Of a stretch of DNA of 64,000 bases, positions 14,950-45,243 are shown piece by piece; positions within the stretch are counted from its first letter, which is position 1; every line of letters begins with the position of its first letter. Made by a program: the position numbers and the translations under genes. The notes beneath the pieces were generated by a model. That model worked only from the letters and a program-made list of their open reading frames with translations, ran no database searches and had not been told where the DNA came from. Source of the stretch: an uncultured Methanosarcinales archaeon (GTDB lineage Archaea; Nanobdellota; Nanobdellia; Woesearchaeales; GW2011-AR9). The stretch is taken from contig CAYFMJ010000003.1 of the NCBI GenBank assembly GCA_964344235.1, positions 31,508 to 95,507 of the forward strand, given 5' to 3'.

Positions 14950-15631
14950 AGAGGTTCATGGAACGTAAACCGTCAAGGGCACGTTCAAATTTGTTAAAGA
15001 GGAAAGGCATCAATTTCTGTTCTGCTTTTCGAAGATGCATCTGATAGGTTGAGAAAGAAACGTCCATTAACTTGGCTAATTCATTTAACGTAATGTGGCG
15101 AGGATATTCATAATAACCGTGTTCAATCGCTAGAAAAACCGCACGCCGTTGTTGCGGTGAGAGTTTGGGGTTGATGCCTATAAACAAAAAGTCGTCAATT
15201 GGAACGTCACGTACTTTAAGCAGTTTCCCAGCGAAATTTCCAAGCATAAATTTACTTGTTGCTAGAATGTTATCTTTATTCCAGCTGCCTAATGACCAGA
15301 ATTCTTGCCCATTGGAGCGAATTTCAACAGGCCTGAGACAGAATATTTCAGGATTATATACGGCACTTGCTGCTTTGGACTCTTTTATTTGCAAGACAAG
15401 AAAGTTGTTATGAAGCTCTGCTTTTATTACTCGTTCATGATTGAGGAGGTTTTTATGGAATACGTCGCGTTCTTTCTCAGAACCACAGACGAAGCCTATA
15501 AAATGGACTAGGATAAAGTTATGAAAATGGTGATAAGAGGTTGGATAGGCAATAAACGTAACATTTGCCGCTTTGGTCATACTTCCTAGAAGCCCCGGTG
15601 TACCGTCTATCTCAAACTCAGAAACCCACAT
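14927..15631 (-). CDS. HTH-10 (Bat-like) transcriptional regulator
   Basis: LSPQQRRAVFLAIEHGYYEYPRHITLNELA..S.ST...HLRKAE. Confidence 0.88.
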   Translation of the reverse strand: MWVSEFEIDGTPGLLGSMTKAANVTFIAYPTSYHHFHNFILVHFIGFVCGSEKERDVFHKNLLNHERVIKAELHNNFLVLQIKESKAASAVYNPEIFCLRPVEIRSNGQEFWSLGSWNKDNILATSKFMLGNFAGKLLKVRDVPIDDFLFIGINPKLSPQQRRAVFLAIEHGYYEYPRHITLNELAKLMDVSFSTYQMHLRKAEQKLMPFLFNKFERALDGLRSMNLSNKQPFQ

Positions 15632-29138: not shown

Positions 29139-29422
29139 ATGGTTAATAGTTCCGATATCCCTCGAAACGCAATACATGCCTCTGCTAGTCCGGGAGATGT
29201 GGTTGAAGTTCTCTTTCAAACACCTGATGGAATGGAGAGGTTTTATTTCACAGAAGAAGGTTTAGTCAACCCTTTTGGAGCAGCATATCCTCACACTGGA
29301 ACTCCAACCATTTCATTAGATGGAGTTGTTGTAGAAGGTGATGGCAGGGAATATCATTCCGGGGAGGAAGGATTTCACTTGCAGAGTATATCGCTTATAT
29401 AAATTTTTCGTTACTTATGAGT
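29139..29422 (+). pseudogene. 5' part of the host gene interrupted by the integrated element
   Basis: Ends at attL; continues in 43983-44543 once the element is removed. Confidence 0.6.
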
Positions 29423-29437
29423 GAAAAAAGTCACGAA
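29407..29437. repeat. attL: TTCGTTACTT-aTGAGTgaaaa-AAGTCACGAA imperfect inverted repeat
   Basis: Read directly from the sequence; right arm is the exact reverse complement of the attR arm over 12 bp. Confidence 0.8.
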
Positions 29438-29487
29438 TCCCCAAAAATTCGTTTTTCATTACTTTAAGTGGTTACAGAGTGCCGAGA

Positions 29488-29503
29488 TTTTCGTTACTTT
29501 TTT
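29488..29503 (-). repeat. Accessory copy of the end motif (TTTTCGTTACTTTTTT)
   Basis: 16-bp reverse complement of 43885-43900. Confidence 0.8.
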
Positions 29504-29523
29504 GCCAAAAAGAGGTGAAAAAG

Positions 29524-29844
29524 ATGACTGACACGACCAAATTGTACCATGAATTGCTAGAAAAGAGCGTATATGCGGTTCTCAGGGGAAACCTGCAGCG
29601 AAATGGCCTTCTGATGGAAGAAACAGATCAGACTGTCAAAATTATAGGGAATTCTAGAATTTCTATTATCCCCAAAGCGGAGATAATTGTTATAGACCTA
29701 GATAAGGAAGGGGCAGATATTACGCCAGAACAACAGACAGAGCTGCAGAAGATCAAAGCCTATCTTGAAGAGAAAAATAGGGCTACCAGGGAGAAAATAA
29801 AGGGGGATAATGAACCCCAATTTTCACTTAATAACTCAAGTTAA
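29524..29844 (+). CDS. Element hypothetical protein
   Basis: GAGGTGA RBS before ATG 29524. Confidence 0.7.
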   Translation: MTDTTKLYHELLEKSVYAVLRGNLQRNGLLMEETDQTVKIIGNSRISIIPKAEIIVIDLDKEGADITPEQQTELQKIKAYLEEKNRATREKIKGDNEPQFSLNNSS

Positions 29845-30063
29845 TACAATTTCAGGACTAAACGGTATGTAGTCGGATTTTGCGGTTACATATCAAAAAG
29901 AGGTGGTAAAGGAGGCTTCAACAATAGATTTGAGGCTAAAAAAAAGAGCATTTTGTGGAGCATTTTGCTCAACTTGTCTTGAAAATTAACAAAAATTCAC
30001 AACACCATCAAGGCTCGCTGAGAAATATGAAGTTGAGTTATTAACAAAAAAGAGGTATCAAAT

Positions 30064-30366
30064 GTGGGTAAACCAAAGAAGTATGATGTAAGAAGTATCA
30101 ATTTTGGCGAAGTAGGCCATCCAGCCAGGATATTAGTAGATAAATTCGTTAGTTTGCATGGAAAAACTGCACTTTCTCGCTTAATTAGACGTCTAGTGAT
30201 GATCTATCTTATGGAAAAGCCAGAGTATAGAGATTGGAAGGCTCAGAAGCTCATCTATGAGAGAAAAGAGCTAGGAAAGAAAGTTGCTCAGATCTTGGAA
30301 AGAAGGAGAAAGGTGGACGAAGAATTGAGAGACCTTGGAGTGAATCCAGATGAACTGATTTACTGA
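30064..30366 (+). CDS. Putative ribbon-helix-helix regulator with coiled-coil tail
   Basis: Beta strand (SINF) then helix-G-helix (ALSRLIRRLV), heptad C-terminus; GAGGT RBS. Confidence 0.5.
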   Translation: MGKPKKYDVRSINFGEVGHPARILVDKFVSLHGKTALSRLIRRLVMIYLMEKPEYRDWKAQKLIYERKELGKKVAQILERRRKVDEELRDLGVNPDELIY

Positions 30367-30368
30367 AA

Positions 30369-30524
30369 ATGAAGGGGCTAAAACGATTCAAATGTGGGCA
30401 CTGCTCAAGGAAATACACGGGCCTGAATAAATGGATCTTCAAGCATTTGGAGAAAAAACATCCTGACAAACCACCAAGGGCGCGTGCAATTGACCTAAAA
30501 TTTAGGTATCATCACGGAGGATAG
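30369..30524 (+). CDS. C2H2 zinc-finger microprotein, 51 aa, not in the ORF track
   Basis: MKGLKRFKCGHCSRKYTGLNKWIFKHLEKKH..; fits tightly between its neighbours. Confidence 0.7.
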   Translation: MKGLKRFKCGHCSRKYTGLNKWIFKHLEKKHPDKPPRARAIDLKFRYHHGG

Positions 30525-30528
30525 AACA

Positions 30529-30936
30529 ATGAAGGAAGATGAAAAAATAAAACAAGATTTCAACCAGAGAGTTCCAATCAATTTAGTTGACGAGCTTCTA
30601 ATACTACCAGGAGACATGAAGTCTAAAGAGAATAAGATTCAAGCTATAAAATTCAAAATAGCAGACCTTAAGAAAAAAGTTGAGAAGTGGGAGTTAAATG
30701 AACTAGAGAAAATTTATCTTCAGGTTGGCAGTGATGGAAAAAGAGTTTATTCTAATGAGAAGCTAAGGGAAGCAGAACTAGAGCGAAGAAAAGATGCTTC
30801 TCCTGAGATTAAGAAATTATACGCAGAATTGTATGAGAATGAAATCAAGCTAGAATCTGAATTAATCGAATTTCGATATATGGATCGCAGATATAGTGCA
30901 CTTAGAAACATTGCTAACATATTTTGTACTAGATAA
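30529..30936 (+). CDS. Coiled-coil element protein
   Basis: Charged helical ORF, GGAGG RBS. Confidence 0.7.
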   Translation: MKEDEKIKQDFNQRVPINLVDELLILPGDMKSKENKIQAIKFKIADLKKKVEKWELNELEKIYLQVGSDGKRVYSNEKLREAELERRKDASPEIKKLYAELYENEIKLESELIEFRYMDRRYSALRNIANIFCTR

Positions 30937-30938
30937 AA

Positions 30939-32294
30939 ATGGAAAACGAATCAATCAAAAGCATGAGGATAGAGAAGTTGAGCATAAGTTCTATTACTCC
31001 GGCCAATTATAATCCTAGAAAGATAAGTCCAGATGAACTTAACAAGTTAAGGAATAGCATACAGAAGTTTGGTTATGTTGAACCTATAATCTACAATAAG
31101 AGAACAGGGAAAATAGTTGGGGGACATCAAAGATTCAAGATACTTAAAGAAATTCTTGCTCCTGAAGAGCTCGTAGATGTTGTTATTGTTGATTTGGATG
31201 AGAATGAAGAAAAAACCCTTAACGTTGCGCTGAATAGAATTGGTGGAGAGTGGGATGACAATAAGTTATCAGAATTACTAAAGAATATTCACGATAATGA
31301 AGAAGACCTGCTAGAATTTACTGGGTTTAATGATAAAGAAATTGAACTCCTTTTGAATCAATTAGAATACGAAGACATATCCAAGGAAGAGAGATTTTTT
31401 TCCATCAATAGGGAAGACATCAAAGAATCAAAAATAAAGACAGGGGACATAGTTGTTCTAAATGATAAGCACAAAATAATTTGCGGCGATTCTTCTGATT
31501 CTTCAATATTCAAAAAATTATTTGTTAATAGAAAATTTGATTTAATGGTGACTAGTCCGCCATATAATGTAAACATTGCTTATGGTAAATATAAAGATAA
31601 CAAGAAATGGAATGAATACATTGACTTGATAAAAAAGATTTTTGATAATTCTAAACAATTCTTGAACGATTACAGATTTTTATGCATCAATATTGGTGAT
31701 ATGACGAAGAACAATTTATCTGCTCATTATAGCATAATATTGGAGAATCTTGATTACAAATACTGTAAAACAATCTATTGGGTCAAACCTTCTGCCTCAG
31801 CAAGAGGAACAAATGTATTGAAAACTCCCTATCCGCGATGGTATAGGCCAAAGGTCAACACGGAAACAATCTTGGTTTATGAATTTGGAGAAAAAGAACC
31901 AGAGATAGCTAATGTGATGTTGACATACTCAAAAGGAGAACTAACTTCTAAAACTAAGCCGGACAAAGGAGAAGCACAGGTAATTAGCAAGAGGTTGCTG
32001 AAACAATTTTTGACTAATGTTTGGTACATGCAACCTGAGACTACGCTCAGCAGAGATCATCCCGCACCTTATCCTGTTCAGTTACCTCTTAATTGTCTTA
32101 AGTTTTTCAGTTTGGAGAACGAAAGGGTATTTGATCCTTTTACTGGAAGCGGAACTAGTTTGCTAGCAGCCGATCTTCTTGGACGGGAATTTTACGGTAT
32201 AGAGTTAGATCCAAAATATGTTCAGTTGGTGATTGAGCGATATAAGAGGTATAAACCTGAATCAAAGATTGAGATAATAAAAAATGAAAATTGA
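30939..32294 (+). CDS. ParB-like N-domain + beta-class DNA amino-methyltransferase (SPPY, possibly m4C)
   Basis: YNPRKIS..SIQKFGYVEPII..IVGGHQR; TSPPY; HPAPYP; DPFTGSGTS. Confidence 0.9.
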   Translation: MENESIKSMRIEKLSISSITPANYNPRKISPDELNKLRNSIQKFGYVEPIIYNKRTGKIVGGHQRFKILKEILAPEELVDVVIVDLDENEEKTLNVALNRIGGEWDDNKLSELLKNIHDNEEDLLEFTGFNDKEIELLLNQLEYEDISKEERFFSINREDIKESKIKTGDIVVLNDKHKIICGDSSDSSIFKKLFVNRKFDLMVTSPPYNVNIAYGKYKDNKKWNEYIDLIKKIFDNSKQFLNDYRFLCINIGDMTKNNLSAHYSIILENLDYKYCKTIYWVKPSASARGTNVLKTPYPRWYRPKVNTETILVYEFGEKEPEIANVMLTYSKGELTSKTKPDKGEAQVISKRLLKQFLTNVWYMQPETTLSRDHPAPYPVQLPLNCLKFFSLENERVFDPFTGSGTSLLAADLLGREFYGIELDPKYVQLVIERYKRYKPESKIEIIKNEN

Positions 32295-33027
32295 AGAAGG
32301 AGATTTAGTTTATTTGGATAAGCACAGGCTTTTATGTGGAAATAGTTTGAAGTATTCAGTATTAAAAAAGTTACTTGGTGACAAAAAAGTTTCTATGTTG
32401 TTTACGGATCCACCTTATAATATAAGTTATGTTCCGGAAGATAGACCAATTGGGGGCCGGAGAAGGTCAAAAAATAAACTTGGCGGGATTATTGGTGATA
32501 CTAACTTTGATTTTAATAAATTTTTCAAGATTCTTGAGATTGGTTTTATAAAAGGAGCCATCTACGTTTGTGGGAGCACAAAGAACTACTGCGATGTTTA
32601 CAAATGGATGACTAATTTCTTTGACAGAGAACCGATTGTAATTGTTTGGAACAAGAATAACTACAGCATTGGAAGAAGAGATTATCATAGACAACACGAA
32701 TTTCTATTTTACTCTTGGTTTAAAGAAAAGGTTTGGAATGGTGACAAGGAAAGAAATCAGTCTGATGTTTGGAATGTTAAAAGAGTTCCATCAACAAAAT
32801 ACATTCATCCTACTCAGAAACCAGTTATCTTAGTTAAGAAAGCTATTTTGAACAGCAGCAACAAAGGGGAGATTGTTCTAGATTTATTTGGCGGTAGCGG
32901 AAGCACTTTGATAGCAGCTGAATCGTCTGGAAGGATATGTTATACTGTCGAATTGGATCCTCATTATTGCGAGAAGATGGTAGAGCGATGGGAAGCATTT
33001 ACTGGAAAAAAAGCGGTTAAGGTCTGA
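32284..33027 (+). CDS. Beta-class DNA methyltransferase (DPPY, likely m6A)
   Basis: FTDPPYN, HPTQKPV, LDLFGGSGST. Confidence 0.92.
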   Translation: MKIEEGDLVYLDKHRLLCGNSLKYSVLKKLLGDKKVSMLFTDPPYNISYVPEDRPIGGRRRSKNKLGGIIGDTNFDFNKFFKILEIGFIKGAIYVCGSTKNYCDVYKWMTNFFDREPIVIVWNKNNYSIGRRDYHRQHEFLFYSWFKEKVWNGDKERNQSDVWNVKRVPSTKYIHPTQKPVILVKKAILNSSNKGEIVLDLFGGSGSTLIAAESSGRICYTVELDPHYCEKMVERWEAFTGKKAVKV

Positions 33028-33029
33028 AA

Positions 33030-33362
33030 ATGATTGAATCTTATTTGAGAAAGCAAGAGAAGTGGGAGGAAACATCCACTGTTGAAGGGATGGATGCTTT
33101 AGAAGGAGAAACTATCACAAAAATTATTCCCTTAGATAAAGACAAGTATATGATTTTAATGAAAAGTGGGGCTAGTTGCGTTGTTCACACAGCTGGATCA
33201 TTTACGATTTATACAAAAGAAAAGACAACTAAGATACTGCAAGAAGTAACTGCCAAAAGTAAGAATTTCAGCATAATTCATTCAAGGGCTAAACTAGCTT
33301 TAGATCAGTTGGCACAAGAAAACCAACAGAAGAACGAACAGAATAAAACGGGGGCTGAATAA
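33030..33362 (+). CDS. Element hypothetical protein
   Basis: Co-oriented ORF packed 2-3 nt from its neighbours. Confidence 0.65.
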   Translation: MIESYLRKQEKWEETSTVEGMDALEGETITKIIPLDKDKYMILMKSGASCVVHTAGSFTIYTKEKTTKILQEVTAKSKNFSIIHSRAKLALDQLAQENQQKNEQNKTGAE

Positions 33363-33365
33363 AAG

Positions 33366-36338
33366 ATGGGTGTTTTTAGAGGAGTTAAATATGAGCTTTC
33401 GGATGAGGACAGAGTACTTGGCGGAAAGAGTAGAAGCCCAGCAAAAATAGCAGCTGCTAAAGTCAATGCTTTAAAGCATGGAAAATCATCTAAGGACCCC
33501 ACAATAAAAGAAGCAATTACTCCTACATCTAAAGAGAAAGCACTAGGAATTACGACTTCTGATAAAATCAAGCAGCTTAAGAGATTAAACCCTTTATTTG
33601 CAAGTGAAAATAGATTCAATTATTTATATGGGGTTCAGGAGTTCTTAGGGGAATTACTAGTTTCTGCATTGAGAAAGAAAAAGGAAGGTAAGTCAACAGA
33701 TTATGAATATAGGCAACTTACTAGATTGAGTTTAGAGTTGTTTGATAGATTCTATGGCAAGCCAGATACTATTGTGAATGTACAGCAAAATTTGGAAGTT
33801 ACGGAAAGTGTTTTACTTACTCCTACGGCTGCACCTGTAGCAGCAAAAGGATTAATCTACTTTGACAGCACAGCCAATAAGATCAAAGTTTCGGAAGATG
33901 GAGCTACGTTTGTAGATCTTGGTGGAGATGTTACAGAAGTAATTGCTGGTTCTGGATTGACGGGCGGAGGAACTGGTGGAAGTATTACTCTTGATATAGG
34001 TTCAAGTACTGGGATAATAGTTAATGCTAATGATATTGCCGTTGATGTTGGTACAGGACCAAACCAAATTGTCCAGTTAGATGGGACTTCCAAACTTCCC
34101 GCAGTGGATGGAAGTCAATTAACAAACTTACCTTCAACGCCAGGGGAAACAACAACTGGCGTTAATAGAGAACTTAAGCAACAAATTGAGGTAGTAGAAT
34201 TATTAGAGGTTAGTAGTTTAACATCTTTAGTTGGTGTTAGTGAAGATATAATTGTTGAAACATTCTCTGACGCTGATGGATTTAACAATTTAGTTAATGT
34301 TAGTAATACGGATGCTACTCATGATTTGCCTAGCAAAAGATACAAAGCAGAATTTGTTGCTGGCGGTGGTGGTTTAATCATTGATGATTTTGACAGAGCC
34401 GATAGTGCTACCGTAGGAAACGGCTGGACTGAAGTTGAAACAACAGGAAGTACATGGTCAATAGTAAGTAACAGAGTTAAATGTGATTATGAAGGAAGCA
34501 GTGATCCAAATATTCATAAAAATATTGGAAATCAGCCAGCATTTGATATCAAGGTTAAGTGGGAATCTACAAATGTTAATATAACAAGGCCCTCTTTAGC
34601 GGTAAATGGTGATGGAATCGCACCACAAAATGGTTTATCGATGAGGGCTACTTCTAGTAGTGGTTTTGGAATTACAAGAAATGGAAGTGTACTTGCTTCT
34701 ACATCTTTCACTTTCTTAGACAACACTGAGTATTTCTATAGACTACAGTGGAACGGCTCTACTTTGAAAGGAAAAGTATGGAAAGCAACAGATGCAGAAC
34801 CTGGAAGTTTTCAACTAAGTACAAGCACCACTACGGTTACGGACAATGAAGTTACTTTATCCTGTATAGCAAATGCAAGTGGTTCTGAGGATGTGTTCTT
34901 TGAAGATTTACAATTCGTAGGAGAAACAATAGAAACGATTGATGATTTTAATAGAGCAAACTCTGCTACTGTCGGCAATGGATGGACAGAGGATGAAGGT
35001 TTTGGGACATGGCAAATTCTTTCAAATAAAGTAAGAGGAGAAAGGACATCGGATGGGAAAGTGACTATGTTTAAAACACTGGGTAATAAAAGTAGTATGA
35101 TTCTTAAATCAAAGGTTAATCGTACAACGACAGTCGCTACTCTCAATTTCAGAATGGGATTTAATTCTACTTCCGGAGATGTTAATGCAAGTGGATTAAC
35201 TCTCCTTGTTGAAGATAGTGGGTCTATTTTAAGTCTATTAAGAGAAGGTGTAAGTTTAGCTAGTACCACTTTCACAGTTGATGAGAGTACAGATTATTTT
35301 ATGCAATTATCTTGGGACGGTTCAACGTTCAAAGGAAAAATCTGGAAAACTTCTGAAAGCGAGCCATCTGGTTACCAACTCTCCGCAAGTACTACAAATT
35401 CAACTGGAGATAAAATTGGATTCACTATCAGTGGTGGTGGACCTGCAACTGGAACAATTGATTGGGATGATGTGGAGATTCCTGCCAATACTGGACTTGC
35501 CGCAACCATAGATGACTTTAACAGGGCCAATTCAACAACAATTGGAAATGGATGGACAGAAGATGTGGGAAACTGGGAAATTTCTGGTAATGAACTAAAG
35601 GGGCCAGTTGATAACAGCAATCCGCGAATTACTAAAGACATAGGAAATAGAGGGACATTTAACGTAAAAGCAAAGATTAGAAGAGAAGATACTAGTTTTA
35701 GATTTAGCATGGAGATCAACAATACAACTCCTAATTTATCTACTGGAATGAAAATTGCATATGATGATAGTACTTTTAGCATTGGTAGAGCCGCTACAGG
35801 ACTTGCATCTACACCTCTTTCTTTTCCAGCAAACACAGACCATTTTATGAGATTGCAGTTTGATGGAACTGATTTGAAAGGAACCCTCTGGGACGCTTCC
35901 GGAGCTGAACCAAGTCCTCAACTTTCTGCAACTACTACAAACACATCTGGGACAGGTATCTTACTTCGTAATGATAAAGCTGGAGGAGGCATTGGTCTAT
36001 CACAGTTTTGGGATGAAATAATCGATGAGAGTATTACTGGCACTGGACCGGGGATAACAGAAAGAAAAGTAGAATTAGATTTACCAACTATAAGCGGAAC
36101 AGTCACTGATACTCAACTTGCTTCCCGATTTAATTTGGAAACTGGAAATGAAATTAAGTATGAATTGGAAGATGCAAGTGCTAACAAAGATACCGACTTA
36201 GCATTTGATACCAAGAATACTCTCACAAATCTTGTATCAAACCCAACAAAGTTAAGGATATTGTTAAAACGAGGAACAGGTGGTTCAGTTGACGAACCAA
36301 ATGTTAAATCAATAGCAATGAGATTATTCAAATCATAA
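33366..36338 (+). CDS. Chimera: terminase-small-subunit-like N-terminus (~145 aa) fused to a tail-fibre/receptor-binding-like protein
   Basis: Basic NALKHG..DRFYGKP head; then GLIYFDST..KVSEDG, GSGLTGGG, NQIVQLDGTSKLPAVDGSQLTNL and three beta-rich repeats. Confidence 0.7.
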   Translation: MGVFRGVKYELSDEDRVLGGKSRSPAKIAAAKVNALKHGKSSKDPTIKEAITPTSKEKALGITTSDKIKQLKRLNPLFASENRFNYLYGVQEFLGELLVSALRKKKEGKSTDYEYRQLTRLSLELFDRFYGKPDTIVNVQQNLEVTESVLLTPTAAPVAAKGLIYFDSTANKIKVSEDGATFVDLGGDVTEVIAGSGLTGGGTGGSITLDIGSSTGIIVNANDIAVDVGTGPNQIVQLDGTSKLPAVDGSQLTNLPSTPGETTTGVNRELKQQIEVVELLEVSSLTSLVGVSEDIIVETFSDADGFNNLVNVSNTDATHDLPSKRYKAEFVAGGGGLIIDDFDRADSATVGNGWTEVETTGSTWSIVSNRVKCDYEGSSDPNIHKNIGNQPAFDIKVKWESTNVNITRPSLAVNGDGIAPQNGLSMRATSSSGFGITRNGSVLASTSFTFLDNTEYFYRLQWNGSTLKGKVWKATDAEPGSFQLSTSTTTVTDNEVTLSCIANASGSEDVFFEDLQFVGETIETIDDFNRANSATVGNGWTEDEGFGTWQILSNKVRGERTSDGKVTMFKTLGNKSSMILKSKVNRTTTVATLNFRMGFNSTSGDVNASGLTLLVEDSGSILSLLREGVSLASTTFTVDESTDYFMQLSWDGSTFKGKIWKTSESEPSGYQLSASTTNSTGDKIGFTISGGGPATGTIDWDDVEIPANTGLAATIDDFNRANSTTIGNGWTEDVGNWEISGNELKGPVDNSNPRITKDIGNRGTFNVKAKIRREDTSFRFSMEINNTTPNLSTGMKIAYDDSTFSIGRAATGLASTPLSFPANTDHFMRLQFDGTDLKGTLWDASGAEPSPQLSATTTNTSGTGILLRNDKAGGGIGLSQFWDEIIDESITGTGPGITERKVELDLPTISGTVTDTQLASRFNLETGNEIKYELEDASANKDTDLAFDTKNTLTNLVSNPTKLRILLKRGTGGSVDEPNVKSIAMRLFKS
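34377..36030 (+). repeat. Three ~186-190-aa tandem domains starting IDDF(D/N)RA(D/N)S.T(V/I)GNGWTE
   Basis: Unit starts at ~34377, ~34935, ~35505; shared L.W/F.G..LKGK.W....EP...QLS.ST ends; synonymous sites diverged. Confidence 0.9.
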
Positions 36339-36353
36339 TGGAGGTAGATAATA

Positions 36354-36632
36354 ATGGCAGATAGATGGTTTAGAGTACCACAAATTGGAGCTGGAACGAC
36401 AGCTGATCCATTTAGACCTGAAACAAATGGATTGAATCAATGGGCTAGTGCTGGACAATACGGAGACAACGACTTTCTCGTACGAGTTTATGGGACCACG
36501 GCAGAACTTGACGCTTTAGCACTAGTGACTGGAGTAACTGAAGTGACAGCAACATTTGATACTGAATACAATACTCTATGGACTACAAGTTTAGGCAAAC
36601 CCGACATTGAGGCAAAAGTTTTTGCTGCTTAA
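36354..36632 (+). CDS. Small virion-associated-like hypothetical protein
   Basis: GGAGGT RBS; P..GAGT..DPFRP motif; directly follows the fibre gene. Confidence 0.65.
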   Translation: MADRWFRVPQIGAGTTADPFRPETNGLNQWASAGQYGDNDFLVRVYGTTAELDALALVTGVTEVTATFDTEYNTLWTTSLGKPDIEAKVFAA

Positions 36633-36634
36633 GA

Positions 36635-36784
36635 ATGGATCTGTTCAAATGGTTACAAGAAATAAAGCGGAACACATACTTTCATTTGAAAGAACTAATC
36701 GAGAAACTCCACAAAAAATACTTCCAAGAAGTATGGATTGAAGTTGGACACAATGGTAACAGATACTGGAAAAATAAACGGTAA
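36635..36784 (+). CDS. 49-aa hypothetical, not in the ORF track
   Basis: ATG 2 nt after the previous stop. Confidence 0.4.
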   Translation: MDLFKWLQEIKRNTYFHLKELIEKLHKKYFQEVWIEVGHNGNRYWKNKR

Positions 36785-37037
36785 TGTCATCAGAATGGCT
36801 GAATTTAAAGGAGAAGTTCTTGCTACTTTGAGGTATCTTAAGGAACAGCAACGCGAACATAGAGATGAAGTAAAAACAGGATTTAAAGAACAAAGCGAGG
36901 ATATTAAGAAAATTTCACGAAACTTGGAAAAGCATCTTAAAAAGTCAGCTATTCAGAAATGGGTAACTGGTTCAATAGTAGTATGGTTAAGTGCCCTTAC
37001 TGGTGTTCTTGTTAAAATATTTGTACTTGGAGGTTGA
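36738..37037 (+). CDS. Coiled-coil protein with C-terminal TM helix (lysis-cassette-like)
   Basis: AEFKGEV.. heptads plus one C-terminal hydrophobic helix; true start may be downstream. Confidence 0.6.
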   Translation: MKLDTMVTDTGKINGNVIRMAEFKGEVLATLRYLKEQQREHRDEVKTGFKEQSEDIKKISRNLEKHLKKSAIQKWVTGSIVVWLSALTGVLVKIFVLGG

Positions 37038-37039
37038 AA

Positions 37040-37207
37040 ATGAAAAAAGACTGGTGGAAATCACGGATGATTTGGATTAATGTTCTAGTTACAGTTAGTG
37101 GTATTGCAACTGCTCTTGCAGATCATTTGACAGCAGGAGGAGCATTGACGGGAATAGGAGTTGTTAATATTGTATTAAGAGTCCTTACAAAACAACCAGT
37201 GAAGTAA
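37040..37207 (+). CDS. Holin-like two-TM microprotein, 55 aa, not in the ORF track
   Basis: MKKDWWKSRMIWINV...VVNIVLRVLTKQPV; GGAGGT RBS. Confidence 0.7.
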   Translation: MKKDWWKSRMIWINVLVTVSGIATALADHLTAGGALTGIGVVNIVLRVLTKQPVK

Positions 37208-37314
37208 TTATTTTTATAAATCTCTTTTCACACAGAAGCCTATACCACCTCTTTTTCCCTATTTGGAGTCGAATCCCTACTCCATCAATCTGGCGAGGGA
37301 AAGTAGCGCCAGAT

Positions 37315-37770
37315 TTAGGGTTTTTTTAATCGTTCTCCCACATCCTTCCTTAACGTAGAAACATACAATTTCAATTGCACTTCAACTTCTCGCCATTCTT
37401 TATCTGTGATTGACTTTCCTTCATAATGTGTTCTGTTTCTCATAAAACGGACTTTCTCAAAGAAATTCCAATCTAATTCTAGTTCAGGAAACTTAACACA
37501 GATATATGCAAAACATCCCTGATGGTTACTACATTTGACTTTTTGCAGGCGAAGCAGAATGTCACACAATTCCCTTAGTGAATCATAATAAAGAAGAAAA
37601 ATTACACGCCAGTTAATGACTTTCTTAGTAATAAGGGTTTCTGCAAACTGTACATTATCAGCAGCAATATCGTACATTCTTTGAAGAGCAAGTTCATCTA
37701 TATCTTTTTCTCTATACTCTCCTGCTACTGTTACTTTATCATAAATTTCTTCAGCTGTCTTTTCAGGCAT
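37315..37770 (-). CDS. HEPN-like domain protein (toxin of an MNT-HEPN pair)
   Basis: LYYDSLRE, NHQG, RFMRNRTHYEG; overlaps the MNT gene. Confidence 0.75.
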   Translation of the reverse strand: MPEKTAEEIYDKVTVAGEYREKDIDELALQRMYDIAADNVQFAETLITKKVINWRVIFLLYYDSLRELCDILLRLQKVKCSNHQGCFAYICVKFPELELDWNFFEKVRFMRNRTHYEGKSITDKEWREVEVQLKLYVSTLRKDVGERLKKP

Positions 37771-38305
37771 GAATGCTCACCGTAAATGGTTCTATTTTTC
37801 CTTTAACATGTATTCCTGCAAGGATATTAGGTATAACATTCTCAATCCTTTTTAATTTTTGCGGGTCTTCGTATTCAAAAAGTTGAATTTCCCTCTTAAA
37901 AATGCGTTCAAACTTTCCTTGTTCAAATTCATCAGCATTACCATAGATAAATAGATCAATATCACTCTCATAATCCCAATCAGCTCTAGCAAAACTGCCA
38001 AAAATAATGACTGTTTTGGCCTTGGGTAAGGAACTGAGGTGTTCTAAAAATCCTGTCTTTTCAAATTGCTGGAAAGCATAGAGCCTTTTCTCCATCTTGA
38101 ATTTTACATTTGTGTAGTTAGCAATATAATATGGCATTTTGCCTTTAGGTCTAAATTTTTTTATGAGCTCTTCCTTAGTTAATTTTTTAAGCCATTTATT
38201 GGTGCTAGTTCTACTTAATCCAGACTTCTTTACAAGGTCGTCAAAGTGCCAGTGCTTCGTTGAATAATTGAAGAATAGCTCTTTAATATTCTCTTTTTGT
38301 CTCAT
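37763..38305 (-). CDS. wHTH + minimal nucleotidyltransferase (MntA-like antitoxin)
   Basis: N-terminal HTH; FGSFARADWDYESDIDLF. Confidence 0.88.
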   Translation of the reverse strand: MRQKENIKELFFNYSTKHWHFDDLVKKSGLSRTSTNKWLKKLTKEELIKKFRPKGKMPYYIANYTNVKFKMEKRLYAFQQFEKTGFLEHLSSLPKAKTVIIFGSFARADWDYESDIDLFIYGNADEFEQGKFERIFKREIQLFEYEDPQKLKRIENVIPNILAGIHVKGKIEPFTVSIHA

Positions 38306-38419
38306 ATTTTAGTACATATATGTGTACTACTTTATAAAGTTTTTGTTCCTAAATCGCTGTAGTTGTACCTCAGAATAAGTAACAAGCTTTTTAAATGAGC
38401 TAAATTATAACAAAATAAA

Positions 38420-40483
38420 ATGAAGTTTACAAGGAATTTATCGGAATTGGACAAGGATGATGTCTCATTAGCGGGAGGAAAAGGGGCATCATTAGGAGAA
38501 ATGATTAAAGCAGGTATCCCTGTGCCAGGCGGATTTGTTGTTCTCTCTACGGCATTTGAGGATTTTATCGAAAAAACAGATTTAAACGTAGAAATTGACT
38601 CTATTTTACATTCTGTTGATCTTAAGAAAATGCATACCATTGAAGAGGCATCAGAAAAAATTAATGCTCTTATTCTTAATGCAAAGATTCCAAATGAGAT
38701 AGTGAGAGAAATAAAAGAATTATTCAAAAAAATGGGAGCCTCATTTGTTGCAGTTCGTTCTAGTGCTACTGCTGAAGACAGCTCAACAGCTGCATGGGCT
38801 GGTCAATTAGAGACCTATCTTAATACTACTGAAGAAAATCTTATTGAGAATATTAAAAAGTGTTGGGCTTCACTGTTTACACCAAGAGCAATATTCTATC
38901 GCTTCGAAAAAGACCTGCATAAGCAAAGAATTTCTGTTGCTGTTGTTGTGCAGAAAATGATTCAAAGTGATGTTTCGGGAATAGCATTCTCGGTTCACCC
39001 CGTTACTGAAGACAGGAATCAACTTATTATAGAAGCAGGATATGGCTTAGGTGAAGCAATTGTTTCTGGTTCTATAACTCCTGATAGTTATGTAGCCGAA
39101 AAAGAACCACTGAAGATTCTTGATAAAAACGTGTATGCTCAAGAAAAATCACTTGTCAAATCAGAAGAAGGTGGTACAGAATGGAAAGAAGTTGCTCAGG
39201 CAGATGTTGAAAAGCAAAAATTAACAGATAATCAGGTACTTGAGCTTACAAAAATCATAATCAACATTGAGGATCATTATGGATTTCCTGTTGATGTTGA
39301 ATGGGCTTTAGAAAATGGAAAATTCTACCTAACGCAATCTAGACCAATTACCACACTTTCAGCGGATACAGGATCTAAGGAAAAATTTTCAGGAGTTCCC
39401 GATATTGCAAACGATGATCTTCAGTATCTTCTTGAGCGAAATGAACTTTACTTTGTATCTTCTATTTTAGCAGGCGGGTTTTGTGGTGAAGAAAATGTAA
39501 AGAAAATATTTGACATTTCTCCTCCAGCGGGAATAGTTCAACGCAATGATGACTTTTTCTTAATTAAATCAACATTGATACCATTTACAAAAAAACTGAA
39601 AGAGAAAATAAAACAAGAGGGTTATGTAAGAAGAATTATTGAAGAATGTCATCAAGCTGGAGCGCAATTACAGGCAGAACTCAAAGAGATTGGAGAGAGG
39701 GCTGCAAAAGTAAGAACAAAAGAAGAGATAGCAAGGTTATTAGAAGAATTTTTTGAAAAAGCAAAAACCTATTGTTCTTTTTATCCAATTGCCCTTTTTG
39801 AGAAACCAATGACTGAATTTGCAGAAAAAATTGCTAAGAAATACACTAAGGATGACAATGAGATGCAAGAGATTTTTAACTTAATAACAACTCCAAGTCA
39901 TACTACAGAAGCTGATAAAGAAAGAGATGATTTTCTAAAGTTATGTGCTCTTGCAGACAAAGGTGAAGATATAAGTCACTTGGCAGAAGAACATGCAAGA
40001 AAATATGGTTGGATAGCAATTAGATATCTCAGAGGAAATTTATGGAAGAAAGAAGATATCCTAAAAAGAGTTGCAGAAGCTGACCTTACCCTTGCAGAAC
40101 AAGAACTCAAATCAAGGAAAAAACATAGAAAAGGAGTAGAAGAAAAGTTGCAAGAATTCATTAAAAAAGTGTCAAATGAAGATAAAGAAAGAATTCAACA
40201 AATAAGAGAAATTGTGTACTTACGAACACAACGGGCTGAGTATTTAGACATGTCAACACAGTATATAATTGGATTTCTACATAGGGTTAATGACGAGTTG
40301 GGTTTAGACTATGAGGACATGCTTCAATGTAATCTGCGTGAAATTGTCGATATGCTAACCACTGGTATTAATTTAAAAGAAGAAATTGCAGCTAGGCATA
40401 AGGAGCTGCTTGTTTTTCATAATGCTGGAGGGGTTTGTCTTTCTGGAGAAGATGCTGAGGAGTATATGGAGCTTCTGGATTAA
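38420..40483 (+). pseudogene. PEP synthase / rifampin-phosphotransferase-like ATP-grasp protein lacking the C-terminal phospho-His domain
   Basis: AGGKGASLGE, VAVRSSATAED, VVVQKM, EAGYGLGE.IVSG, DVEWA, QSRPIT; stops with no GG..SHAAI.RE motif. Confidence 0.75.
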
Positions 40484-40676
40484 GACATTTCACTAACCTT
40501 TTCTTTCTTAGTTCTCCAAGTGTTACAGATACTTTTACTAATTGTATCTTAAGAGATTTACTGATTTCTGTAGGCGTTATGGGCTCTTCGTATTCATCCA
40601 AAATATTCAGCACTTTCTTCCTGCGATAACCTCTTCGTAGCCACGCCACCAAACGGTAATCAATAGATAAGTCCAT
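40392..40676 (-). pseudogene. Winged-helix regulator truncated after KCLNPEA
   Basis: R.KVL..L..PITPTEISK..VS.TL.EL...LVKCLNP; the tail reads antisense into the PEP gene. Confidence 0.65.
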
Positions 40677-40758
40677 AGAAAGAACAGGTATCCTATCGGA
40701 TAAAAGACAGGTTTACCGTTAGATATAACTATTTAACAAGGGCAACTTATTTAAAGAA

Positions 40759-41019
40759 ATGAGAAAACAAAAACTAACGAGGTGGTTATTTATGGAAGAA
40801 AATAAATTTATGAATAAAGAGGATCTAAGCAAGCTAGCTAAAGAAGTTGTGAAAATTTTGAAGAATGACGAAGAGTATGCTCAATTTGTTGGTAGCGAAG
40901 TTCAAGATTATCTTGAAAAAACTAAAATACGAGAACATATTAATGAAATTGATGAACTAAAAAAAGAATTTAAACAATTATTATCTGAAGTAAAAGGCAA
41001 AGCTAGACAAGAACCATGA
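40759..41019 (+). CDS. Element hypothetical coiled-coil protein
   Basis: GAGGTGG RBS suggests a start at MEEN. Confidence 0.55.
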   Translation: MRKQKLTRWLFMEENKFMNKEDLSKLAKEVVKILKNDEEYAQFVGSEVQDYLEKTKIREHINEIDELKKEFKQLLSEVKGKARQEP

Positions 41020-41022
41020 TTT

Positions 41023-41181
41023 TTACTTCTTTCTTTTCATATACTGATTAATGAATCTTTCTAGTACTGTCCAGACTTTTTCTCTTCTTTTCTTGACTTC
41101 ATGAGTAAAATCAATCCATTTATCTCTATTCCCTCGGAAGGACAATGAATCATCCTCGGACGAACCCTTTTTTTTTGCCAT
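41023..41181 (-). CDS. Putative RHH/CopG-like repressor, 52 aa, not in the ORF track, divergent from the integrase
   Basis: MAKKKGSSEDDSLSFRGNRDKWIDFTHEVKKRREKVWTVLERFINQYMKRKK. Confidence 0.55.
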   Translation of the reverse strand: MAKKKGSSEDDSLSFRGNRDKWIDFTHEVKKRREKVWTVLERFINQYMKRKK

Positions 41182-41544
41182 GTGGTACAATGCTATTGTC
41201 TTACTATATAAATATTTACATTAATTTAGGGCAATCTTTATATATCTCCTATGTCCCACAGTGACAAAGTGCTACAAATAAAAAAGTACGTAAATGGAAG
41301 AAATTTAGGCTTATTTATCCCAAAAAAGAGAAATATAGTATTATTCTCTCAGAAAGGGATAAGGATAAGTGAAAATTGTACCATGTTAGTGGTGAAAAAG
41401 GCAACACAATATCAACCATGCCGTAATCCTAGTTTAAAGGGGGCGGTATGTGATAGCAAGAGCCCCAACATCTGTTTTTACTTGTTGGGTAGTTAAGAGT
41501 TGGAGCTGTGCCTGCTGTCTCCAAAAAAAATGGAGGTGGTAGGT

Positions 41545-42396
41545 ATGCTACCAAATAGAATAAGGTATGTGAAAATGGGTAAATCAACCCTAGCGAAAAA
41601 AATAACGGAAGAGGAATTGCAGACATTCTTTGACGCAATTCCAAGAGTGACAAAAAGGAGCACGTATTGGCTCACATTGTTTATGACTCTAAGCGATGCT
41701 GGGCTTAGAGCAGGTGAGGCAGTGAGATTGAAAATAAATGATATCCATCAGGAGAAGAATATCATTACAGTACACCAGCAAAAGAATGGCGTAGATCATG
41801 AAGATACGCCTTTTACTCAAAGGTTGAGAGAACAACTCAACAAATTTATTGCCTTATATCATAAACAAATCAAAGAGAGTGGGGACTATATGTTCTTCAC
41901 TCAATATACAGTTAGGGGTCAAGATGTTATAGGCGAGGGTGAGCACATTAAGACTTCTAATTTACGAAAGATGTTCAATAAAGTAAGGGCTGAAGCAGCC
42001 ACTGTCATGCCAAGCATAGGAAGAGCTTATACAAAGAGGACAACAAAAGACGTTACCAATGGTAATGCTCCATGTAAGGCACTTGGCAGGCCTCTGATGG
42101 TAATTACGCCCCACACTTTAAGACATCGCTTTATACAGCGAATAGCGGACCAGGAGGGACTCTTTAAGGCCCAACAGTGCGCTAGACACCTACATTTTTC
42201 TTCTACCTTAGTCTATGCAAAAAAGAGCATGAAAGCAAAAGTTGAAGCAATAAACAACACGTTTGATTCCGAGAAGAAGGACCAAGCAGAAGAGATTAAT
42301 GAATTAAAAGAACAGGTTGCAAGCCTTACAAAAATGCTTCAGGATAATATGAATATTCTGAAGTTCATTAAGGGGGTGAATGGAGGAAATGAATAA
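41545..42396 (+). CDS. Tyrosine recombinase/integrase: catalytic domain with C-terminal coiled coil
   Basis: AGLRAGE (R), QKN (K), PHTLRH (H-x-x-R), HLHFSSTLVY (H..Y); GGAGGTG RBS before ATG 41545. Confidence 0.92.
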   Translation: MLPNRIRYVKMGKSTLAKKITEEELQTFFDAIPRVTKRSTYWLTLFMTLSDAGLRAGEAVRLKINDIHQEKNIITVHQQKNGVDHEDTPFTQRLREQLNKFIALYHKQIKESGDYMFFTQYTVRGQDVIGEGEHIKTSNLRKMFNKVRAEAATVMPSIGRAYTKRTTKDVTNGNAPCKALGRPLMVITPHTLRHRFIQRIADQEGLFKAQQCARHLHFSSTLVYAKKSMKAKVEAINNTFDSEKKDQAEEINELKEQVASLTKMLQDNMNILKFIKGVNGGNE

Positions 42397-42664
42397 GCAA
42401 GAAACCAAATATCTCTTAGAAGTTTACAAAGATTGTCTAAAACTTGAAAGGCAGAACCAATTAACAGAGCATGGTGCTGGAATGGGCGAATTAGCTTCTA
42501 TTCTTCTCAAGAAGCACAGAGAATTCAAGCATCTGAAAGAAAGGGAGAAATTGAAATGCCTATCTTGTAAGAAGGCTTATTGGGTATCTAATGAAGAGAG
42601 ATGCGTTTTTTGCGATTCAAAAAAGGTAGTGAAGGCAAATGCCCCTCTACCAGTTAAACACTAA
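42380..42664 (+). CDS. Zinc-ribbon element protein
   Basis: CLSC..CVFC. Confidence 0.65.
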   Translation: MEEMNKQETKYLLEVYKDCLKLERQNQLTEHGAGMGELASILLKKHREFKHLKEREKLKCLSCKKAYWVSNEERCVFCDSKKVVKANAPLPVKH

Positions 42665-42680
42665 CTTGGAGGTAATACCA

Positions 42681-42986
42681 ATGAAAGAAAACAAAAAACT
42701 AGCCGTAGGCATAAAAAAGGACTTTACTAAGAAGAAATCCGGAAGAAAAAGAGTATCACACAGGGAAGTGTGTTATAGAATTCTAAAGGAGAGAGGTAAG
42801 CCAATGCATTACAAAAAAATAACGGAAGAAGTTCTAAAGGAATGTAAGTCAGTAGGTAAGACTCCGCAAAATACAATGTATGCTAGAATGTTAACAGACA
42901 AGAAAAGATTCAAACTTCTTGGCAAGGGAAAGTTTGCTCTCTTAGAATGGGAAAACAAAGCGAAGGTGATTAAGAATGCCAAATGA
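42681..42986 (+). CDS. HARE-HTH domain protein
   Basis: EVCYRILKERGKPMHYKKITEEV...GKTPQNTMYARM..RF...GKG.F.L; GGAGGT RBS. Confidence 0.8.
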   Translation: MKENKKLAVGIKKDFTKKKSGRKRVSHREVCYRILKERGKPMHYKKITEEVLKECKSVGKTPQNTMYARMLTDKKRFKLLGKGKFALLEWENKAKVIKNAK

Positions 42987-43332
42987 AATTGGAATTGTAT
43001 CTAAAGTCAAACCACGGGACAAAACTTACAGTGTTGCAGTAAACAAACAATGGTTTGGTGGTTTCGGTAAGTGTCCTGTACTTGAAGGAGAAACAGTGAA
43101 AATTGAATGGAAGCAGAAAGGTGACTTTAAGAATATATTAAAAATAGAGAAAGTAGAACCTGTATTTCAAGATGAGCTACAACAAGCTCCTGAAATTGAT
43201 TCTAGGATCAATGATATAAGGCTTCAGGTTTGTGTAAAAGCTGCAGCCGGAGTGTTTGCAGGAACAAAAATCAACCCATCAGAAATTGCTGAGTATTCAA
43301 GGAACTTGTTTAAGGAATTGTGGGGGAAGTAA
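42976..43332 (+). CDS. Possible OB-fold ssDNA-binding protein
   Basis: Beta-rich N-half (GETVKIEWKQKGDFKNI) and helical IRLQVCVKAA tail; tentative. Confidence 0.4.
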   Translation: MPNEIGIVSKVKPRDKTYSVAVNKQWFGGFGKCPVLEGETVKIEWKQKGDFKNILKIEKVEPVFQDELQQAPEIDSRINDIRLQVCVKAAAGVFAGTKINPSEIAEYSRNLFKELWGK

Positions 43333-43333
43333 T

Positions 43334-43516
43334 ATGACTAAAGCAACAGAAGAGCTAACAAATGAGAAACAAGACAGCATAAAATTAAGCAAGAATTCAA
43401 AGGGTTATGTCTGGGAAATCAAACGATATTACGATTTCTCAAAGACAAAGCCAGAAGATGTAATTAAACAGCTTGGAGAGATAGATAAAGAGCTTAAAGA
43501 GAAATTTGGAGGTTGA
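43334..43516 (+). CDS. Element hypothetical protein
   Basis: SIKLSKNSKGYVWEIK; ATG 1 nt after the previous stop. Confidence 0.65.
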   Translation: MTKATEELTNEKQDSIKLSKNSKGYVWEIKRYYDFSKTKPEDVIKQLGEIDKELKEKFGG

Positions 43517-43522
43517 ATTATC

Positions 43523-43780
43523 ATGAGTGAATGGTTTAAGAAAAAGTTTCCTGGGCTTACTAGTGAAGTTGGAGAAGTGACTCAGAGAGAGTGGAAGGAG
43601 GCAAAGAAAGCTTACTTAGAATGGAAGAAACAGGAAATGTTGTCTCCGGAGAACATTGAAAAACATTGTCTTGATAAAGAGCTGGTAAGGAAAGCAGTGG
43701 GAAAATTAATTTTATTGAATCAAGAGGATCCAAAATTAAGAAAGTGGTACAATGTTATCACAAAAGAACTGGGCCTTTGA
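43523..43780 (+). CDS. Element hypothetical protein
   Basis: GGAGGT RBS. Confidence 0.65.
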   Translation: MSEWFKKKFPGLTSEVGEVTQREWKEAKKAYLEWKKQEMLSPENIEKHCLDKELVRKAVGKLILLNQEDPKLRKWYNVITKELGL

Positions 43781-43863
43781 GAGCAAAAATGCGGAAACCG
43801 AAAAGCATAAATAGATGTACTACTTTACTCATTCTAGACATGCACTTAAAATTAAGTGTGTGT

Positions 43864-43959
43864 AAAAAGTAACGAAACACCACAAAAAAAGTAACGAAAA
43901 CTGAAAAATGCCAAGCGTAACGGAAATGTGGGAACTCGTGAATTCTTAAGCAACGGAAA
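43864..43959 (+). repeat. Four direct copies of the end motif: two AAAAAGTAACGAAA, two degenerate G(T/C)AACGGAAA
   Basis: At 43864, 43884, 43917 and 43948. Confidence 0.75.
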
Positions 43960-43969
43960 TAGGCAATTA

Positions 43970-43985
43970 TCGTGACTTTTTGAGT
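43970..43985. repeat. attR: TCGTGACTTTT-TGAGT
   Basis: Arm is the reverse complement of 29425-29436; TGAGT is shared with attL. Confidence 0.8.
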
Positions 43986-44543
43986 TTACCAATAATTCAA
44001 GGAGAACTTCGTATAAATATTGATGGGCGTTTTTTAGCAAGTCCCGACAATGATTTCTTAGCTGTAATAAGGGATGATGATTAGAGAGTTGGTTGCTTAT
44101 ATGGCCAGGGAAGTAGGTTTTTTCGAGCTGGAGATTTTGGAAACCAAGAAGCTGCAAGAAGATATTTACAGGAGTTAGAACCCGAAGTCGCCAGGTTTTT
44201 TGGTTATGGAAGAAGGTTACCATGGCAAGTTAAAAAATTGAGAGATTTGTCTCAAGGAAAGGATCTGCCACATGACCCCAAGATGGATGGTGGGAGTGAT
44301 GTTGTTAGAAGAGAAACTATCGATACACTACTTCTAACCACAATTATTTTTGAGACGGAGCCAGGGAAGAGTGCTTTTGCTACAGTTTATGCAACTCCCG
44401 CACCTCTTGAGCAAGGAGTAGTTGACAGAGGGTGTTTATATCTTGACGTAGCACAGATATCTGACCCGGGAGGCATGCACATGCCTGCAGCTTCTGTATT
44501 TGAACGAAAGGCCAGGAGAAGGTGTATAAGAGAAGTGTGGTAA
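43983..44543 (+). pseudogene. 3' part of the interrupted host gene, with one in-frame TAG at 44082
   Basis: One frame reads SLPIIQGELR..DDD*RVGCLYGQG..KLRDLSQGK..EVW and includes track ORF 44238-44543. Confidence 0.65.
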
Positions 44544-44583
44544 TGAGCATACATTTTTAAATCTTGAGAATCTCTTTAGAATC

Positions 44584-45243
44584 ATGCCAAAAAAGAGGTC
44601 TAAAGAAACTATTGTGGTGATGAGTGCCCACACAGATGATTTTGTAATAGGGGCAGGTGGAACTATTCTAAATTATTTGAAAGAGGGGAAAGAAGTGATT
44701 GCCGTTGTTTTCTCATTAGGAGAAAAGTCGCATCCCTGGTTAAAAGATGGTGTGATTAAAGATATTCGAAAGAAGGAAACGTTTGATGCGTTAAATATTA
44801 TGCCCTGTAAGATTCGTTTTTTAGATTTAGGTGATCAAGCTATTTACAAAGATTTTACAAAGCAGAAAAAAGTAAGAGAAAAATTGCAGAAAGTATTTGA
44901 TAAAAAACCAACGAAAATTTTTACACATAGTAGTGAAGATCCCCATCCAGATCACCGGGCGGTACACAAGATAACATTAGAGATGTATGAGAAGCTTAAT
45001 GGGAAAAAAAAGCCAGAGGTGTATATTTACTCTGTTTGGAATCCAGTATCGTTTAAAACACAATTTCCATCGTTATATGTTAATGTGACGAAGACGTTTT
45101 TCAAGAAATTAAAAGCGTTAAAGACGTTTGAAAGTCAGAAATTTGCAGTTGTTTACCCAACGTTCTTACTGATGTGGCGGGCGTTTAAGGATGGGTTCAA
45201 AATCCGAACGTGGTTTGGGGAGCATTTTTTTAGGATAAAATGA
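44584..45243 (+). CDS. PIG-L/LmbE-family deacetylase
   Basis: AHTDDFVIGAGG, DPHPDH, K..AL..FESQ. Confidence 0.88.
   Translation: MPKKRSKETIVVMSAHTDDFVIGAGGTILNYLKEGKEVIAVVFSLGEKSHPWLKDGVIKDIRKKETFDALNIMPCKIRFLDLGDQAIYKDFTKQKKVREKLQKVFDKKPTKIFTHSSEDPHPDHRAVHKITLEMYEKLNGKKKPEVYIYSVWNPVSFKTQFPSLYVNVTKTFFKKLKALKTFESQKFAVVYPTFLLMWRAFKDGFKIRTWFGEHFFRIK

Follow-up and report, generated by a model that had tools for sequence, protein, structure and literature searches.

The segment between thrS and PIG-L

The stretch of DNA analysed here, 64,000 nucleotides of contig CAYFMJ010000003.1 (hereafter the window), comes from a metagenome-assembled genome (MAG) of 1.19 Mb that is 96% complete. The host is an archaeon: both the rRNA operon and the threonyl-tRNA synthetase (ThrRS) encoded in the window are of archaeal type. 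We studied a segment of 14,563 bp (29423-43985, plus strand) that encodes a tyrosine recombinase and is marked off by inverted 12-mers, by arrays of a short motif and by a gap in synteny. The segment is probably an integrated element, and its two ends would form a palindromic attachment (att) site when joined.

Two conserved host anchors frame the segment. On the left lies thrS, the gene for the archaeal-type ThrRS (26861-29029, minus strand), which was recognised by its Pfam families and has full-length orthologues of 58-69% identity in relatives. On the right lie the genes for a PIG-L deacetylase and a GT4 glycosyltransferase (44584-46382, plus strand). Divergent thrS stands beside PIG-L/GT4 in all 20 sampled relatives of the family, where the spacer between them measures 0.1-4.4 kb vs 15.6 kb here. 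This difference supports the view that the 14.6-kb segment is an insertion relative to these relatives. The comparison with element-free relatives that the initial annotation had called for was successful in this respect, but it provided no empty allele, as the spacers of the relatives consist of unrelated genes without an att-like motif. The thrS|PIG-L spacer is a variable spot in the 20 relatives (L046-L065). It ranges from 100 bp to 4.4 kb, its contents differ by genus, and its genes encode an S-adenosylmethionine (SAM) methyltransferase, an LPG-synthase-like membrane protein, and Bro-N, HTH_10 and GNAT proteins.

We observed the integrated state in seven sequencing runs of PRJEB17505. Exact-protein look-ups of four flank and end genes returned 18 contigs or contig parts from these runs, and all were collinear with the occupied locus. 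Both junctions were assembled identically in independent runs, and the single-nucleotide polymorphisms among the contigs lay outside the att cores.

The tyrosine recombinase gene (41545-42396, plus strand) is intact and lies 1.6 kb from the right junction. Its product matches PF00589 with 60 bits against a cut-off of 27.1 (56.3 bits in the genome scan). Residues R55, K80, H190, R193, H215 and Y224 are invariant in an alignment of six sequences and align to the corresponding residues of XerA, and the H-x-x-R motif is kept. Since the alignment to XerA (4a8e) begins only at residue 92 of that chain, the protein lacks the N-terminal core-binding (SAM-like) domain. This domain was also absent from the AlphaFold2 (AF2) model, and the upstream reading frames do not encode one. 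The model has a predicted local distance difference test (pLDDT) score of 65 and shows a single catalytic domain followed by a long C-terminal helix, with the chain unfolded before residue 22. Its top fold matches were XerA, the integron integrase IntI, Tn1549 Int, XerH, Cre and lambda Int. With 49.4 bits against a cut-off of 220 for the XerA equivalog family NF040815, the recombinase is no XerA orthologue.

Downstream of the recombinase gene lie three genes (42639-43516, plus strand) for a HARE-HTH protein (PF05066), a 118-amino-acid (aa) protein and a 60-aa protein. They form a module that accompanies this clade of integrases and is a candidate accessory DNA-binding or directionality set. 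In addition to the recombinase and the HARE-HTH protein, the element encodes a ParB-methylase fusion, a second methylase, a PPDK_N protein and a 990-aa repeat protein, the last of which has weak virion and tail-like matches. It also carries a nucleotidyltransferase gene with an adjoining gene for a 151-aa partner without a family match, which we read as a possible HEPN-type pair. The enclosed genes look like the cargo of a mobile element. No replication initiator was recognised among the genes of the element, and conjugation genes are absent from it. A transposon with terminal inverted repeats and a target-site duplication was rejected, as the element has no DDE or other transposase and its repeats are not flush with duplicated bases. 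Just past the last gene, a sub-threshold Rfam match to the DUF805b RNA (43789-43815, plus strand; 27.6 vs 35.6 bits) is probably a terminator-like hairpin.

Junction sequences, arm motif and insertion site

The left junction (attL) reads ...TTTTTCGTTACTTA-TGAGT-GA-AAAAAGTCACGA-ATC, where TGAGT occupies 29418-29422 and the 12-mer occupies 29425-29436 on the plus strand. The right junction (attR) reads ...TTA-TCGTGACTTTTT-GAGT-TTACCAATAA; here the 12-mer spans 43970-43981 and TGAGT spans 43981-43985. We take the two plus-strand copies of TGAGT, common to both junctions, as the putative crossover segments. The 12-mers are the presumed core arms of the element, P' on the left (plus strand) and P on the right (minus strand, TCGTGACTTTTT on the plus strand), and both were also located by the motif scan and by the genome count. 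Positions 43970-43981 are the reverse complement of AAAAAGTCACGA, and the element spans 29423-43985 between these inverted 12-mers. When 43970-43985 is joined to 29423-29436 through the common TGAGT, the result is TCGTGACTTTTT/GAGTGA/AAAAAGTCACGA, a perfect 12-bp dyad of the form 12-6-12. The palindrome proposed in the initial annotation was therefore confirmed by direct reading, and also by folding. In single-strand folding, all 12 positions of the arms pair without interruption in the rebuilt attP (z = -7.5), against nine interrupted pairs in attL and none in either attR or the rebuilt attB.

The predicted circle junction is ...ATCGTGACTTTTT GAGTGA (or GAGTTT) AAAAAGTCACGAAT.... The hexamers outside the arms are GAGTGA on the left and GAGTTT on the right and differ at two of six positions. 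The predicted empty site is ...TTCGTTACTTATGAGTTTACCAATAA..., and excision at TGAGT would restore the core TTACTTATGAGTTTACC. This attB is a reconstruction that lacks a dyad and has a single good arm. attL and attR are identical over 5 bp, a figure that describes the two visible sites and does not give the length of the overlap. If the overlap were 6 bp with distal mismatches, first-strand exchange on the left followed by replication would give exactly the observed attL and attR. Apart from TGAGT, the end regions share no direct repeat that is longer or above chance. Alternative junctions at ACTT or at the 8-mer GCTTATAT (29393/44095) are at chance level, and both abolish the 12-bp dyad.

The motif of the arms is strongly clustered. 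The 12-mer AAAAAGTMACGA has five copies in the 1.19-Mb genome, all within about 120 bp of the two junctions. AAAGTMACGA occurs five times in the window (0.29 expected). Of seven exact AAGTMACGA 9-mers in the window, all but one lie at the ends of the element; the exception, AAGTCACGA at 48522, is an unrelated copy. The motif scan bore out the earlier claim that the GTCAC variant is limited to the two core copies, which are the outermost copies on the element side. The remaining exact copies have GTAAC (29408 and 29491 on the minus strand, 43867 and 43889 on the plus strand). Two accessory copies lie within the left end on the minus strand (29456-29502), namely AAGTAATGA at 29456-64 and AAAAAGTAACGA at 29491-29502. 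Four co-oriented copies on the plus strand make up the right array (43864-43955), where direct reading and the scan found exact AAAAAGTAACGA at 43864 and 43886 and degenerate GCGTAACGGAAA and AAGCAACGGAAA at about 43915 and 43944. In the circle, the four co-oriented copies would lie about -36 to -113 from the dyad centre and the two inverted ones at about +39 and +74, which is a roughly mirror-symmetric layout. All accessory copies bear the core motif and no distinct arm-type sequence.

The genome contains 4928 exact inverted pairs of 12-mers 3-40 kb apart, and about 100 of these have a flanking direct repeat of at least 5 bp that gives a spacer of 5-9 bp. The palindrome alone is therefore insufficient, and the significance of the ends comes from the clustering of the motif, the enclosed integrase and the break in synteny.

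On the host side of attL there is a further arm (29407-29417, minus strand). The sequence TTCGTTACTT at 29407-29416 is an exact AAGTAACGA on the minus strand, found by direct reading and by the motif scan. The look-alike described in the initial annotation is thus real, though one nucleotide out of register, as this B arm stands 3 nt from TGAGT vs 4 nt for the P arm. At the background rate of the window, an exact 9-mer in near register on the host side is expected by chance with a frequency of about 5e-5. Over 12 nt, this arm does not differ from the internal accessory copy at 29488-29499. A corresponding B' arm could not be recognised on the right flank, neither in the rebuilt attB nor by folding. 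Half-site targeting with 5 bp of homology is thus a plausible reading of the rebuilt attB, which is without a second arm. The recombinase may pick a pre-existing half-site plus a short matching overlap, or the arm may be the relic of an earlier related occupant. Relaxed target choice, which had been suggested as a consequence, would be deduced from one insertion.

The initial annotation had placed the integration in a protein-coding gene. The orphan open reading frame (ORF) of the left flank (29139-29402, plus strand; 87 aa) is complete and uninterrupted, and its stop codon TAA (29400-29402) lies 15 nt ahead of TGAGT. The whole ORF corresponds to a single unit of an 87-aa repeat, of which the 4060-aa protein P0005 has 20 copies. 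Because this ORF is a complete unit and ends before TGAGT, no gene is interrupted at the target. Across the rebuilt junction, a frame other than that of the 87-aa ORF is open; it runs for 59 codons between stops and would encode 34 aa if started at the ATG at 29417. The 87-aa ORF is a stand-alone copy of a repeat domain of giant proteins, and it had no homologue among 60 relatives. The right flank (43986-44583, plus strand), by ORF reading, motif scan and fold, has an orphan ORF at 44238-44543 (open from 44088) and no recognisable B' arm. The flanking ORFs had no homologues in relatives, in large protein sets or at other places of the genome itself, and none of the 20 thrS-PIG-L relatives has any of them. 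As we place it, the insertion lies in orphan, lineage-specific DNA within a variable intergenic spacer. The other part of the claim, a target other than a tRNA gene, was borne out. Neither flank has a tRNA or an Rfam family, which also led us to reject a non-coding RNA target, and the sole tRNA gene of the window is at 62316-62387.

Interpretation of the ends

We consider it somewhat better than even (about 55%) that 29423-43985 is an integrated element and that its circular form has an attP core of 12-6-12. In this model, the tyrosine recombinase that the element encodes (41545-42396) would mobilise it through conservative site-specific recombination. The ends of the element would abut in the excised circle and create the attP core, in which a 6-bp spacer separates the inverted 12-bp arms TCGTGACTTTTT and AAAAAGTCACGA, and six more copies of the arm motif would flank this core in roughly mirror-image orientation. 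Strand exchange would take place within or at the edge of the common T-GAGT. The chromosomal site would lie in the variable spacer between divergent thrS and PIG-L, with one good arm, TCGTTACTT, and no recognisable second one. The exact crossover point, the circle, the empty site, the protein that binds the motif and any current activity are what we infer from these features.

The 6-bp spacer supports this model, as it is the canonical value of Xer/dif sites (PMC8371274). Several points weigh against it. The identity of 5 bp is below the shortest reported for archaeal att sites, 8 bp (PMC8371274), and distant relatives of the gene module appear to use longer repeats, of 16+8 bp (L066) and 11 bp (L077). 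The host-side arm is out of register by 1 nt. The bare geometry of the site is found in about 2% of the 12-mer inverted pairs of this genome. The DNA that borders the element is orphan sequence, so the "host side" is itself an assumption.

Finally, neither the empty site nor the circle junction, the check proposed initially, was found in the contigs, in cluster look-ups of the junction ORFs or in pattern scans of three collections. The exact 28-bp circle junction was absent from the viral and genome collections. A degenerate scan for arm-N6-arm in the metagenome, genome and viral collections gave nine bacterial or unrelated hairpins, none of them with genes of the element. Cluster look-ups showed no strain variants of the flank proteins in the protein collection. 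For the minus-strand ORF that crosses attR, that collection had only the 123-aa form of the occupied site and not the 81-aa form of the empty one. The only close homologue of the integrase that was found (80% identical, Logan SRR22387952) lies on a 1.7-kb contig and was compared at the protein level, and a search of three collections for related loci gave none. Some contigs break near the junctions with overlaps of 4-5 nt, at 29414/29417 in the attL core (ERR2281799) and at 43864/43868 in the first accessory repeat of attR (ERR2281804). Such breaks could come from low coverage or from local heterogeneity. Their positions are not the branch points that mixed attB and attP would produce, and we read them as low coverage.

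The differing hexamers and the one-armed attB would also be expected of a tyrosine-recombinase transposon in the style of Tn916, CTnDOT, the elements called SEs or Tn554. The inverted 12-mers would then be the true termini, and GAGTGA and GAGTTT would be coupling sequences taken from flanking DNA. The four to five common bases would reflect target preference or chance, the spacer of the joint would be either hexamer or a heteroduplex, and excision need not restore the predicted empty site. In SE and Tn554-type elements, inverted repeats meet at a joint whose spacer of 6 bp does not depend on homology (PMC10214605), and Tn1549 Int is among the best fold matches of the recombinase. However, the element has a single integrase and lacks the SE core set intA-tfp-intB-srap, and the common T plus GAGT stand in exact register, which is the expected trace of homology-dependent exchange. 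One insertion is known, from which variability of the target cannot be judged. We regard this transposon as clearly the less probable explanation. Both it and the 12-6-12 attP core predict a circle joint of the form arm-6 bp-arm, and taken together they make such a joint quite likely.

The other two explanations concern what the ends mean. It is rather improbable, slightly more so than a transposon with coupling sequences, that the boundaries differ from ours and that the TCGTTACTT arm and the orphan flanks (the 87-aa and 44238-44543 ORFs) are themselves mobile DNA. This could be the relic of an earlier occupant, with attL as a hybrid P-O-P' of a tandem or nested insertion, or a larger island of 15.5 kb. 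The thrS-PIG-L spacer is merely 100-170 bp in three relatives, homologues of the flanking ORFs occur in 0 of 20 relatives, and the host arm equals the internal accessory copy at 29488-29499 over 12 nt in a genome with 11 tyrosine-recombinase genes, where mobile DNA is abundant. On the other hand, there is no accessory motif array left of 29405 and no direct repeat above chance near thrS or PIG-L, and the 87-aa ORF looks like a repeat unit from giant proteins of cells and not like a gene of a mobile element. The least probable of the explanations, to which we give little credence, sees the motif clusters as iterons of a replication origin or as operators for a regulator encoded by the element, and the joined palindrome as a coincidence. 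Accessory copies that share the core motif would suit such a role, and so would an integrase without the usual DNA-binding N-terminal domains and a geometry that is not rare in itself. Yet the clusters coincide exactly with both edges of the insertion and mirror each other in orientation, the GTCAC variants are confined to the two outermost element copies, and the element has no recognised replication initiator. Moreover, iteron or operator roles and a role in recombination are not mutually exclusive.

Inverted arms around an overlap of 6-8 bp are the norm for tyrosine recombinases, and neither this arrangement with a 6-bp spacer nor archaeal integration outside tRNA genes is new. Archaeal att identities of 8-243 bp and both intergenic and intragenic attB sites have been documented (PMC8371274).

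The 12-6-12 attP core resembles that of lambda (C-O-C') and of pNOB8-type (type II) elements, in which int stays intact upon integration, inverted arms enclose a short overlap and extra sites lie on both sides. The lambda-type core of inverted sites around a 6-8-bp overlap is matched by the rebuilt site at the sequence level only. The differences are the identity of attL and attR (5 bp here vs 15 bp in lambda and 8-243 bp in archaeal elements; PMC8371274), accessory sites that bear the core motif, an integrase with neither an arm-binding nor a core-binding domain, and a target that is no tRNA gene. With XerA/dif, XerCD/dif and XerH/difH the element shares the order arm-6 bp-arm, which is 11-6-11 for dif (PMC8371274) and 12-6-12 here, and XerA is the best sequence and fold match. 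In contrast to Xer/dif, the recombinase is encoded by the element, has no N-terminal domain and is no XerA orthologue, and its chromosomal partner site is non-palindromic.

CTnDOT/NBU1 and Tn916/Tn1549 are similar in that they have little or no homology in the overlap, a recognition that leans on one conserved side, inverted ends at the joint and a coupling sequence of 5-7 bp. However, they are bacterial, their integrases have arm- and core-binding domains, and their carriers are conjugative; the element here has no conjugation genes, and theirs tolerate mismatched overlap or coupling sequences. The SEs, with which Tn554 and GInt elements are grouped, also end in inverted repeats, perfect or imperfect, which meet around 6 bp in the circle (a likeness of geometry only; PMC10214605), and tyrosine recombinases are their sole strand-transfer enzymes. 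However, SEs need intA, tfp, intB and srap, and the core set of the group has two tyrosine recombinases, whereas there is one recombinase here and two in distant relatives from Woesearchaeota. SSV-type (type I, "suicidal") elements also integrate by an archaeal tyrosine recombinase, but their attP lies inside int, which is split on integration; here int is intact, 1.6 kb from attR.

Three features are unusual: the identity is short, a single motif serves the core and the accessory sites alike, and the integrase has no core-binding domain. They could point to a clade of Woesearchaeota-like recombinases made of the catalytic domain only, which would use one motif of 9-12 bp for both the crossover arms and the accessory sites. 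Such enzymes would insert at a single-armed chromosomal target with at most 5 bp of identity, below the archaeal minimum of 8 bp, and the motif would be recognised by the catalytic domain or by the HARE-HTH/118-aa proteins. This generalisation is tentative, and we hold it to be doubtful. If the 12-6-12 attP core is confirmed, the ends of an integrative element would be known precisely in a DPANN-type archaeon, from a group in which mobile elements and their sites of integration have been poorly mapped. The symmetric 30-bp site and its compact recombinase would also make a simple biochemical system.

Related gene modules and other mobile DNA in the genome

Close relatives of the element's gene module among MAGs are labelled Woesearchaeota. 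Genes 44-66% identical to the HARE-HTH and 118-aa genes stand beside integrases in seven other MAG loci, while the 60-aa gene was matched in L066 only. The module loci are L066 (G066 C4), L067/L080 (G021 C6), L076-L079 and L081, and several are labelled Woesearchaeota. The distant modules have the order int, HARE-HTH, 118-aa gene, int, with two outward-facing integrases. These are 26-33% identical to the recombinase of the element, and all lack the core-binding domain. In place of the GTMACGA motif, the distant modules bear TGTCAAG repeats.

The element in L066 has an imperfect direct repeat of 16+8 bp at 40-68 and 15227-15255, 15.2 kb apart. The repeat consists of ATAAATACTTTTCGGC, then 4-5 variable nt, then TGTCAAGT, and it may mark the ends of an element of similar size in G066. 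In L077 we observed a direct repeat of 11 bp. An 8-6-8 palindrome, GCTGTCAC-AGCGTT-GTGACAGC, lies at 1404-1425 of L066 between the leftward integrase and the HARE-HTH gene. It adjoins an inverted pair TTGACA/TGTCAA, which is also present in G021 (L067, at about 14731).

The genome itself has eleven matches to PF00589, ten of them above the Pfam cut-off, which is a very high load of recombinases for 1.19 Mb. Two form an inverted pair about 1.3 kb apart (C1:402401-404578). Several contigs (C11, C14, C20, C23 and C7, C12) share a sequence of 12-17 nt at their start and have its reverse complement at their end, for example CCACCAAAGTGG near base 9. They could be repeated elements whose terminal inverted repeats interrupt the assembly, or else the pattern could be an assembly artefact. 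The archaeal 23S rRNA gene of the window contains a group I intron (59921-60159, minus strand; Rfam RF00028, 85.6 bits).

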